From: Candidatus Brocadia sp.
Lineage (GTDB): Bacteria > Planctomycetota > Brocadiia > Brocadiales > Brocadiaceae
Length of the DNA: 32,000 nt
Assembly: GCA_021650915.1 (NCBI GenBank)
Contig: CP091279.1
Location: 2,640,001-2,672,000 of the forward strand
Reading direction: 5' to 3'
The notes beneath the pieces were generated by a model. That model was not told where the DNA came from and did not search any database. It saw only the letters and a list, made by a program, of their open reading frames with translations. The translations under genes were made by a program, and so were the position numbers. Positions within the stretch are counted from its first letter, which is position 1. Every line of letters starts with the position of its first letter. Shown here piece by piece: positions 22,725 through 22,950 of the stretch.

Positions 22725-22753
22725 TTGACAGAAATATCTATTAATGGTATTAG
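22725..22753 (+). promoter_or_regulatory. Sigma70-type promoter candidate (TTGACA-17 nt-TATTAG)
   Basis: A perfect -35 hexamer at 22725-22730, a 17-nt spacer, and TATTAG at 22748-22753. It lies about 35 nt upstream of the riboswitch-like element. Confidence 0.45.
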
Positions 22754-22795
22754 TGTCCGAAACTATTTACGGAGACACATAATAAATAAGATATC

Positions 22796-22902
22796 CCGCT
22801 AAAGGTAAACCCTGAGCAATCAGGGGGCGCAAAGCAAAGGGTCTTGCCAGGTCGCTGAAACGGTTTCCATAGCCTAAGCAGTCGAAAGACAGCCTTGCTG
22901 CC
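22796..22902 (+). promoter_or_regulatory. GEMM-I (c-di-GMP-I) riboswitch-like aptamer candidate
   Basis: The sequence aaaGGUAAACC-CCCUGA-GCAA-UCAGGG-GGCGCAAAGC at 22801-22835 parallels the conserved GGCAAACC / GNRA hairpin / GGACGCAAAGCC core. CCUAAG at 22873-22878 is tetraloop-receptor-like. The 3' GACAGCC..CUGCC resembles the conserved 3' strand. I could not confidently fold the second hairpin. Confidence 0.45.
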
Positions 22903-22950
22903 AAAGATATTTTAAGAGTACATATCTTTGACAGTAAGGCTTTTTTGTTT
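22892..22950 (+). terminator. Rho-independent terminator (19-bp stem plus U-run), likely the expression platform of the riboswitch-like leader
   Basis: gccttgctgccaaagatat (22892-22910) pairs with atatctttgacagtaaggc (22922-22940), with one G-U and one mismatch. It is followed by ttttttgttt. The 5' arm overlaps the aptamer 3' strand. Confidence 0.65.

Follow-up and report, generated by a model that had tools for sequence, protein, structure and literature searches.

A GEMM-I-type leader with a predicted c-di-GMP ON switch upstream of a carbohydrate-metabolism operon in Candidatus Brocadia

What is a short leader, complete with a promoter, a riboswitch-like core, and an intrinsic terminator, doing some 460 nucleotides (nt) away from the next gene on its strand? 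This question is raised by a locus of the anammox bacterium Candidatus Brocadia sp. (Planctomycetota, Brocadiales), which lies in a stretch of 32,000 nt from the forward strand of contig CP091279.1 (positions 2,640,001 to 2,672,000; assembly GCA_021650915.1), hereafter the window, whose own numbering is used throughout. An earlier note, made from the letters of the window, had described a stand-alone leader with a core like that of GEMM-I, i.e., of the riboswitch class that senses c-di-GMP (cyclic diguanosine monophosphate) and is also called c-di-GMP-I. The answer reached here is that the element is very probably the 5′ leader of a carbohydrate-metabolism operon, carrying a c-di-GMP-I transcriptional ON switch. 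The parts of the leader are given below with reference to the Vc2 riboswitch of Vibrio cholerae, whose numbering was mapped onto the window.

22725–22753, plus strand: putative sigma-70-type promoter, read from the sequence; GCTTGACA and TGnTA also in orthologs, TTGACR in 53 of 108 family copies
22784–22913, plus strand: c-di-GMP-I (GEMM-I) aptamer including the outer P1 helix (RF03167 match at 22795–22906; covariance model R1, 107.1 bits)
22789–22798, plus strand: P1 5′ strand (covariation; cmscan alignment)
22804 (G), plus strand: equivalent of Vc2 G20, ligand contact (model position 10)
22805–22830, plus strand: P1a hairpin, P2 in Vc2 nomenclature (cmscan alignment, column counts)
22806 (U), plus strand: equivalent of Vc2 C22 (cmscan alignment, column counts)
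22827 (G), plus strand: equivalent of Vc2 A43 (cmscan alignment, column counts)
22828 (C) with bulged G22892, plus strand: equivalent of the Vc2 C44–G83 interhelical pair (column counts; the pairing itself is predicted)
22831–22833, plus strand: equivalent of Vc2 A47–A49, AAA junction, A22831 being A47 (cmscan alignment)
22833–22899, plus strand: P1b, P3 in Vc2 nomenclature (covariation; column counts)
22844–22887, plus strand: distal P1b insert of 44 nt, lineage-variable, differing even among orthologs
22901 (C), plus strand: equivalent of Vc2 C92, ligand contact (model position 75)
22892–22946, plus strand: intrinsic terminator (RNAfold; sequence reading)

The whole window was compared with Rfam by cmscan at gathering thresholds and with clan competition applied, and a single gathering-level match was returned, namely RF03167 (c-di-GMP-I-GGC, clan CL00126) at 22795–22906 on the plus strand, with the full model, 1–80, aligned. 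Its score of 62.1 bits (cutoff 59) and E-value of 1.5e-12 exclude a chance match. The covariance-model search that had been suggested for this element is thus positive, and the GEMM-I-like core is borne out by the clan match, by covariation, and by canonical contact bases. A second, lower-scoring family of CL00126 also exceeded its own cutoff and was suppressed by clan competition; presumably it is RF01051, with a cutoff of 35. Other weak Rfam matches in the leader, to microRNA models, merely reflect the long terminator hairpin and were discarded.

The name of the top model calls for care. The c-di-GMP-I-GGC variant reportedly stems from Weinberg et al. 2017; in our literature search it was mentioned as a model name only, and no validated ligand was found on record for RF03167. 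Its three letters were read as a G20/G47/C92 signature from the displayed consensus. In that consensus, model position 37 is a conserved G (GCGAAgCc), where the window has A22831 (GCAAAGC), as do two orthologous leaders (L009, L011) and a copy from a sister strain (L001); the GGC that the window shows at 22826–22828 corresponds to the internal-loop triplet G42-G43-C44 and is distinct from the 20/47/92 signature. By alignment, the contact signature is the canonical G/A/C, not G/G/C. Because the contacts are the canonical G20/A47/C92, C44–G83 is present, and the variant-defining G is absent, we read the element as an ordinary c-di-GMP-I aptamer that is scored slightly higher by the GGC model; its filing under RF03167 was rejected, the A47 equivalent being A and not G. 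Three orthologs, with 60.7–64.2 bits against RF03167, show the same preference over RF01051, and the sister-strain paralog, which has A43 (L001 14624–14740, minus strand), is matched by RF01051 directly, at 56.5 bits against the cutoff of 35. Under clan competition, then, the best-scoring Rfam model can name a variant without its defining base.

Regarding the fold, the order of the GEMM-I core and its GNRA-capped hairpin, both noted before, are present at 22801–22835, which reads AAAGGUAAACC-CCCUGA-GCAA-UCAGGG-GGCGCAAAGC; P1a has its GCAA tetraloop at 22816–22819 and an internal loop, AAA/GGC. The 3′ strand previously recognized as GACAGCC..CUGCC is likewise there, as GACAGCCUUGCUGCC at 22888–22902. 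The outer part of P1 consists of 7 base pairs (bp), 22789–22795 with 22906–22912, and its inner part includes the pair G22798–C22902, while P1b has a 10-bp base, 22833–22843 with 22888–22899, bulged G22892 included. The second hairpin, which did not fold convincingly by eye, has a well-supported base, with 8 of the 10 pairs changing on both sides across the family, and a hypervariable distal insert. As for the single nucleotides, G20, A47, and C92 are ligand contacts (PMC4744006), the roles of the GEMM-I contact and tertiary nucleotides, including C44–G83, have been described (PMC4744006, PMC3764141), and A43 is not among the ligand contacts (PMC3764141). The C44–G83 pair is of the Watson–Crick type and conserved throughout GEMM. 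The departure of GGUAAACC from the consensus C that had been pointed out is real; it is a tolerated C-to-U change (U22806) that gives a U·G wobble, and U is found there in 27 of 111 family copies.

One proposed element of the fold did not survive. In type 1 GEMM, a GNRA tetraloop on the first hairpin docks into a receptor in the second. The sequence CCUAAG, at 22872–22877 inside the distal insert, had been likened to a tetraloop receptor; it is present, and coincidental. It reads GCUUAAG in L009 and L011, a third ortholog (L132) has a different module, and CCUAAG has no UAUGG partner. In the family data set, the true 11-nt receptor (CCUAAG...UAUGG) occurs only with GAAA loops (7 of 8, in Omnitrophota-type copies) and never with GYRA loops. 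With a motif that is neither conserved nor partnered, and a window loop that is GCAA, a receptor role of CCUAAG was rejected. The distal second hairpin of the anammox GEMM-I family is in general hypervariable and modular (L043 3338–3470, L093, L094, L034, and 22844–22887 of the window); in one of its modules the palindrome GTTTAAAC is repeated in tandem, with differing numbers of units, and even orthologous leaders carry different modules, as L132 does when compared with L009 and L011.

The family to which the aptamer belongs was collected by scanning a genome collection with the core pattern, which gave at least 120 stretches; among the matches listed, most come from Candidatus Brocadia, Jettenia, Scalindua, and Loosdrechtia, and some from Omnitrophota and other groups. 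A covariance model, R1, built from 41 copies, has 111 matches in 100 sources and 31 more in the remaining 30. At least 140 similar aptamers were found overall, mainly in Brocadia, Jettenia, and Scalindua genomes. In the window it finds a single match, whose 107.1 bits equal the family median of 107. Copies are numerous within genomes, with at least 13 in the metagenome-assembled genome (MAG) H5_AMX3 and at least 8 in the complete B. pituitae genome.

The 111-row alignment supports the helix fold through its pair counts: standard pairs fill 92.2% of the cells, versus 85.6 ± 0.3% after shuffling and 35–48% when the partner strand is slid, and none of 500 shuffles reaches any of the observed measures. 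Changes on both sides are seen in 18 of 27 pairs, i.e., in all 7 of outer P1, in 1 of 2 of inner P1, and in 8 of 10 of P1b. This alignment was fitted to the R1 model, and the search pattern had set P1a, G20, and A47 in advance, so that P1a is uninformative for covariation. The C92 and G83 columns, which the pattern did not impose, have C in 107 of 111 copies and G in 110 of 110, respectively, and the C44 column has C in 111 of 111.

Many of the paralogs have a ribosome-binding site (RBS) and a start codon 20–100 nt past the U tract, and what they precede is the usual content of GEMM-I regulons: genes for pilins, PilM, subtilases, large secreted proteins including SpvB-like ones, sigma-54 activators, and radical SAM enzymes. 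In some places two or three GEMM-I riboswitches stand in tandem, each with its own terminator (L108 7586–7993, L123 5–522, L029 1953–3712, L031, L130), an arrangement that has been described for other bacteria (PMC9481103).

How such an aptamer could act on transcription is suggested by the hairpin with which it overlaps. The terminator consists of a 5′ arm (22892–22910), an 11-nt loop (22911–22921), a 3′ arm (22922–22940), and a U6 tract (22941–22946), and its hairpin, 22892–22940, has a folding energy of −22.3 kcal/mol by RNAfold. The 19-bp stem and U6 tract claimed before hold in substance: the hairpin and the U6 are there, and the stem is made of 18 pairs, one of them G·U, plus one C·A mismatch. 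A simple terminator scan did not list this hairpin because of its 11-nt loop. The claimed overlap with the aptamer is also found, as the 5′ arm takes in the P1b 3′ strand (22893–22899), C92, and the 3′ strands of inner and outer P1 (the latter at 22906–22912), with positions 22893–22912 common to the terminator region and to the 3′ strands of P1b and P1. Aptamer and terminator are therefore mutually exclusive, and ligand-dependent anti-termination, i.e., an ON switch, is predicted from this sharing. The minimum free energy fold of the full leader (−54.5 kcal/mol) is the terminator form, against −35.6 kcal/mol with the aptamer enforced, and P1, P1a, and P1b are already formed when nascent RNA ending at 22913 is folded. 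The overlap design is kept in all orthologs, with terminator hairpins of −19.5 to −25.3 kcal/mol, and at least 75 of the 107 family copies have a terminator that overlaps the aptamer in this way, with a median of −21.9 kcal/mol.

The design would be of the standard kinetic ON type, where the ligand averts termination by holding P1 and P1b. Transcription would begin about 7 nt after the TTGACA/TGgTATTAG promoter, and the nascent RNA would fold into the three-helix aptamer, comprising P1 with its 7-bp outer helix, P1a with the GCAA loop, and P1b. With c-di-GMP bound, through contacts to G22804, A22831, and C22901, P1 and P1b would persist, their 3′ strands at 22893–22912 would be sequestered, no terminator would form, and the polymerase would read through toward the operon. 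When the ligand is absent, these strands would pair with 22922–22940, and the resulting hairpin of −22 kcal/mol, followed by U6, would give a terminated transcript of ∼185 nt.

The promoter invoked in this scheme is found where it had been called, with a −35 box TTGACA at 22725–22730, a 17-nt spacer, and a −10 hexamer TATTAG at 22748–22753; the TG at 22745–22746 extends the latter to TGgTATTAG (22745–22753). A strict consensus promoter scan did not list 22725–22753 because the −10 hexamer has no final T. The GCTTGACA and TGnTA elements are kept in the orthologs L009, L011, and L132, and among 108 family copies, 53 have TTGACR no more than 120 nt upstream, versus ∼6% by chance (a rough estimate from base composition, not computed with a tool), an enrichment that supports the promoter call. 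The start of transcription would then lie near 22760.

Upstream regions of the paralogs are not uniform. Sigma-54-like boxes (TGGCA-N7-8-TTGC), about 25 nt upstream, replace the TTGACA promoter in L083, L097, L113, L015, L118, and L001 (minus strand), and two of the genes downstream of such copies encode sigma-54 activators. Elsewhere, tandem units of 7–9 nt, e.g., CAACAATCA, CACTAACA, and CGCTATTCA, each repeated, stand immediately upstream of riboswitch copies, 30–110 nt before the aptamers (L040, L047, L054, L092, L114), and may have an effect on promoter spacing or phase variation.

The gene served by the leader is indicated by orthologous loci. The features that lie beyond the terminator are as follows.

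22953–22990, plus strand: post-terminator leader segment with the hairpin CAACCCTGTCAGGGTTG (22953–22969), common to orthologs L011 and L132 by alignment
23040–23389, no strand assigned: composite insertion of ∼350 bp, resembling a miniature inverted-repeat transposable element (MITE), absent from L009, L011, and L132
23395–23400, plus strand: RBS, AAGGAG
23412–24011, plus strand: histidine-phosphatase-family gene (PF00300, 2.5e-47)
24070 or 24199 to 25836, plus strand: pgi (PF00342)
25938–26888, plus strand: class II fba (PF01116)

Six NCBI assemblies encode exactly this phosphatase protein, and the leader is identical in all six. One of them, GCA_000987375.1, is presumably Candidatus Brocadia fulgida. 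That assembly is listed among anammox genomes (PMC10156729). Phosphatase homologs with 86%, 85%, and 83% identity are found in L009/L010 (MAG H5_AMX3), L132, and L011, respectively, and all three loci, from related anammox lineages, have the same GCTTGACA promoter, the aptamer, and the terminator upstream of the orthologous phosphatase gene, with the aptamer ending 128–176 nt before its ATG. In a four-way alignment, conservation extends from the −35 box to the terminator inclusive and resumes at the RBS and ATG, with a window-specific block in between. From terminator to start codon the orthologs have 120–140 nt; in the window, the phosphatase ATG at 23412 lies 465 nt after the U tract, in agreement with the ∼460 nt first given.

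The block responsible is the insertion at 23040–23389, the site of which is 8 nt upstream of the phosphatase RBS. It is bounded by inverted termini, 23040–23064 and 23366–23389 (GGCAGCAATTTAGCTTTTTGAAAAA and TTTTTCAAAAAACTAAATTGTTAC), which recur as inverted pairs in many Brocadia loci, and further copies of its internal segments are found at other places in the window. The suspicion that repeats had come between leader and gene was thus correct and can now be given exact limits, and the repeat-free orthologous loci with which a comparison had been advised do exist. The term "stand-alone" needs to be amended, since the leader is indeed separated in this genome, as the apparently recent, lineage-specific result of a MITE-like insertion and not by native design. 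The case illustrates how a leader can be physically cut off from its operon by a MITE.

Nested repeats occupy 23040–23389 and other intergenic regions of the window (12311–12445, 17985–18139, 19654–19846, 21091–21219, 25840–25929, 27579–27801, and 30524–30749). They include a MITE-like element with 24-nt inverted termini of the GTAACAATTTAGTTTTTTGAAAAA type, which forms inverted pairs in many Brocadia loci and several copies of which end 9–45 nt before a start codon (23412, 25938, 27983, or, on the minus strand, 21051), and a 30-nt perfect palindromic hairpin, GCAGGGGCAGGTTTCAAACCTGCCCCTGCA, at 19805–19834, 23095–23124, and 25840–25869, one copy of which directly follows the pgi stop codon. 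The sister assemblies L001 and L003, collinear in other respects, lack the IS110-family transposase gene of the window (PF01548 and PF02371; 18495–19505, minus strand), so the window comes from a different strain or assembly than these.

Of the downstream genes, the histidine phosphatase is the first after the leader, and the orthologs preserve the context of its RBS and ATG. Its nearest relatives in NCBIfam and PDB are the acid phosphatase Rv3214/Gpm2 of Mycobacterium tuberculosis and yeast YKR043C, a sedoheptulose/fructose bisphosphatase, all below equivalog cutoffs. It is a probable sugar-phosphate phosphatase that would act with the products of fba and pgi, or with that of glgP in relatives; in the orthologous loci, a glycogen phosphorylase gene comes after the phosphatase gene and a divergent isoamylase gene before it. 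No strong plus-strand terminator is predicted between phosphatase, pgi, and fba, and these genes are probably cotranscribed. By orthology, the regulated unit would be the phosphatase operon. Upstream of the leader, a divergent gene of 165 amino acids (aa) has no Pfam or NCBIfam match and no link to the riboswitch element.

The linkage is not universal, and this is one of several points that weigh against our reading. Relatives with 75–88% phosphatase identity (L007/L008, L133–L135) have no riboswitch at this gene in Rfam and R1 scans, so the phosphatase linkage is confined to a subclade. The top Rfam model is the GGC variant, the margin is only 3 bits, and the score of RF01051 itself is masked by clan competition; where C22 is highly conserved, the window has U22806; a C·A mismatch (22797/22903), flagged in the cmscan alignment, takes the place of the second inner P1 pair; the canonical final T is missing from the −10 hexamer; and the 350-bp insertion, being rich in hairpins, could stop or process the read-through RNA or carry a promoter of its own. 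The relatives without a riboswitch have peculiarities of their own: in L133–L135 the phosphatase gene follows xfp, an HD-GYP-like gene (PF13487/PF01966; L135 1–457) stands directly upstream of the xfp-phosphatase operon in one of them, possibly another tie between c-di-GMP turnover and this gene cluster, and in the 88%-identical lineage a predicted 1096-aa fusion of RpiB, transaldolase, and PGI domains (L007 1–2730) precedes the phosphatase gene.

Three other explanations have to be weighed against that of a functional, c-di-GMP-responsive leader of the phosphatase operon. That the resemblance is accidental, or that the element is merely one of a generic class of dispersed repeats and not a functional riboswitch, might be thought from its membership in a multicopy family of very similar sequences and from its repeat-rich intergenic setting, but this explanation is hardly conceivable, and we regard it as effectively refuted by the Rfam match (E 1.5e-12 against a curated model), the compensatory changes in P1 and P1b, and the conservation of functional bases that were not targeted (C92 and G83); the copies, moreover, lie consistently between promoter and genes, each with its own unrelated flanks. 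Greater interest attaches to the idea of a specificity variant that senses another ligand, e.g., another cyclic dinucleotide. In the cGAMP-type (cyclic GMP-AMP) riboswitches, GEMM-Ib, position 20 is A in place of G, a feature reportedly described by Kellenberger et al. 2015 and Nelson et al. 2015. For a 3′,3′-cGAMP riboswitch, A would be expected at 22804, i.e., at position 20, but the base is G, and this G20 argues for c-di-GMP rather than cGAMP; the key pocket change of the cGAMP-type riboswitches is mentioned elsewhere (PMC9481103). What speaks for some other specificity is that RF03167, for which no record of a validated ligand was found, outranks RF01051 here and in three orthologs, together with the G at A43, shared by 42 of 111 copies, and the U at C22. 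Against it, A47 is A here and in every copy examined (a base fixed by the search pattern in the family set), A43 is not a ligand contact (PMC3764141), and leaders that precede the same orthologous gene may have either A43 or G43, the base differing in 5 of ∼20 ortholog pairs, often along with C22/U22, which indicates that the two bases are interchangeable and makes G43 improbable as a specificity marker. We consider a changed specificity very unlikely, and it would be just as surprising if the G43/U22 subclass, to which this copy and three orthologs belong and which is the one best scored by the ligand-orphan GGC-variant model, had an altered preference that linked another cyclic nucleotide signal to central-carbon and glycogen genes. 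As an observation apart, the two positions covary in the alignment (columns 22806 and 22827), with 63 copies having C and A, 21 U and G, 21 C and G, and 6 U and A, and both switch together in three orthologous leader pairs; this suggests a structural coupling, e.g., a base triple or an isosteric C·A/U·G contact.

The most serious alternative concerns the connection to the operon. The riboswitch may be intact and uncoupled, yielding mainly a ∼185-nt terminated RNA or a nonproductive read-through while the genes use a promoter inside or after the insertion, so that the leader would be truly stand-alone or an evolutionary leftover; we think this unlikely though well worth keeping in mind. The distance of 465 nt, versus 120–140 nt in orthologs, fits such a state of affairs, as do the long hairpins of the insertion and its weak matches to promoters at 23038 and 23107. 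Orphan copies with no nearby same-strand open reading frame (ORF) occur elsewhere, too (e.g., L001 14616–14750, minus strand, L018, L019, L024, L058, and L068). These considerations are countered by the state of the leader and of the inserted DNA: the aptamer scores at the family median and keeps all contact nucleotides, the leader is identical in six assemblies of the species, no intrinsic terminator is predicted in the inserted stretch or, more broadly, on the plus strand in 22950–23412, and the promoter-like matches are at chance level. Since the insertion is apparently recent, decay would not yet be visible either way. In strain GCA_021463075.1, the orphan (L001 14616–14750) is an additional GEMM-I copy, which scores 56.5 bits against RF01051, has a terminator to itself, and is convergent with fba; no ORF of at least 80 aa lies within 900 nt downstream, and the repeat that follows this copy is also found in the window, whose sequence differs at the place of the copy.

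With a c-di-GMP-responsive leader of the phosphatase operon as the favored explanation, its meaning can be stated with the reserve that the case demands. Anammox bacteria are uncultured, granule-forming organisms with a predicted 8–13 or more very similar c-di-GMP ON-switch leaders per genome, most of which precede pilins, secreted proteases, and large surface proteins; the one discussed here precedes sugar-phosphatase, pgi, and fba genes (phosphatase and glycogen phosphorylase in relatives). We give about even chances to a direct, RNA-level activation of a gluconeogenesis/glycogen operon by c-di-GMP in these bacteria, through one member of a regulon of at least 10 near-identical ON-switch leaders. 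If true, the aggregation signal c-di-GMP would be tied to carbon storage or to the sugar supply for the extracellular matrix. In the literature library that was searched, no paper on GEMM riboswitches in anammox bacteria was found, and the locus offers a modest lead into c-di-GMP control of their carbon metabolism.

Placed among known systems, a canonical c-di-GMP-I aptamer with a terminator is of a known kind and routine for the riboswitch field: the class has been known since 2007–2008, and the transcriptional architecture is common. With the GEMM-I riboswitches of RF01051, such as Vc2, the window copy shares the three-helix architecture, the AAAGGYAAACC ... GGGRCGCAAAGC core, the GNRA loop on the first hairpin, the contacts G20, A47, and C92, and the C44–G83 interhelical pair. 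It differs in having U·G for C–G at the C22–G45 pair and G at A43, no 11-nt tetraloop receptor, a lineage-specific distal insert of 44 nt, and a 7-bp outer extension of P1; its leader, moreover, has an intrinsic terminator, whereas Vc2 is usually described as acting at translation. The GGC variant, RF03167, is the best-scoring covariance model and aligns over its full length, 1–80, yet the window has A at the A47 equivalent (GCAAAGC) where the model has G (GCGAAgCc).

A closer parallel in regulation is provided by the transcriptional ON riboswitches of Geobacter, GEMM-I and GEMM-Ib (c-di-GMP and 3′,3′-cGAMP). In both cases there are many paralogs per genome, an overlapping intrinsic terminator, control of secreted, envelope, and pilus genes, and ligand-dependent read-through, the last two being predicted in anammox bacteria. 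The differences are that the window has G and not A at position 20, so that c-di-GMP is the predicted ligand in contrast to GEMM-Ib, that the host belongs to another phylum, Planctomycetota (Brocadiales), and that the copy stands before central-carbon and glycogen genes. Finally, in Streptomyces, c-di-GMP controls glycogen breakdown at the protein level through GlgX (PMC9530166). The signal is thus linked to glycogen metabolism there as it may be here, where the orthologous loci carry glycogen phosphorylase and an isoamylase neighbor, with the difference that the regulation in Streptomyces is allosteric and acts on a protein, while the control predicted for Candidatus Brocadia is transcriptional and acts at the RNA level.

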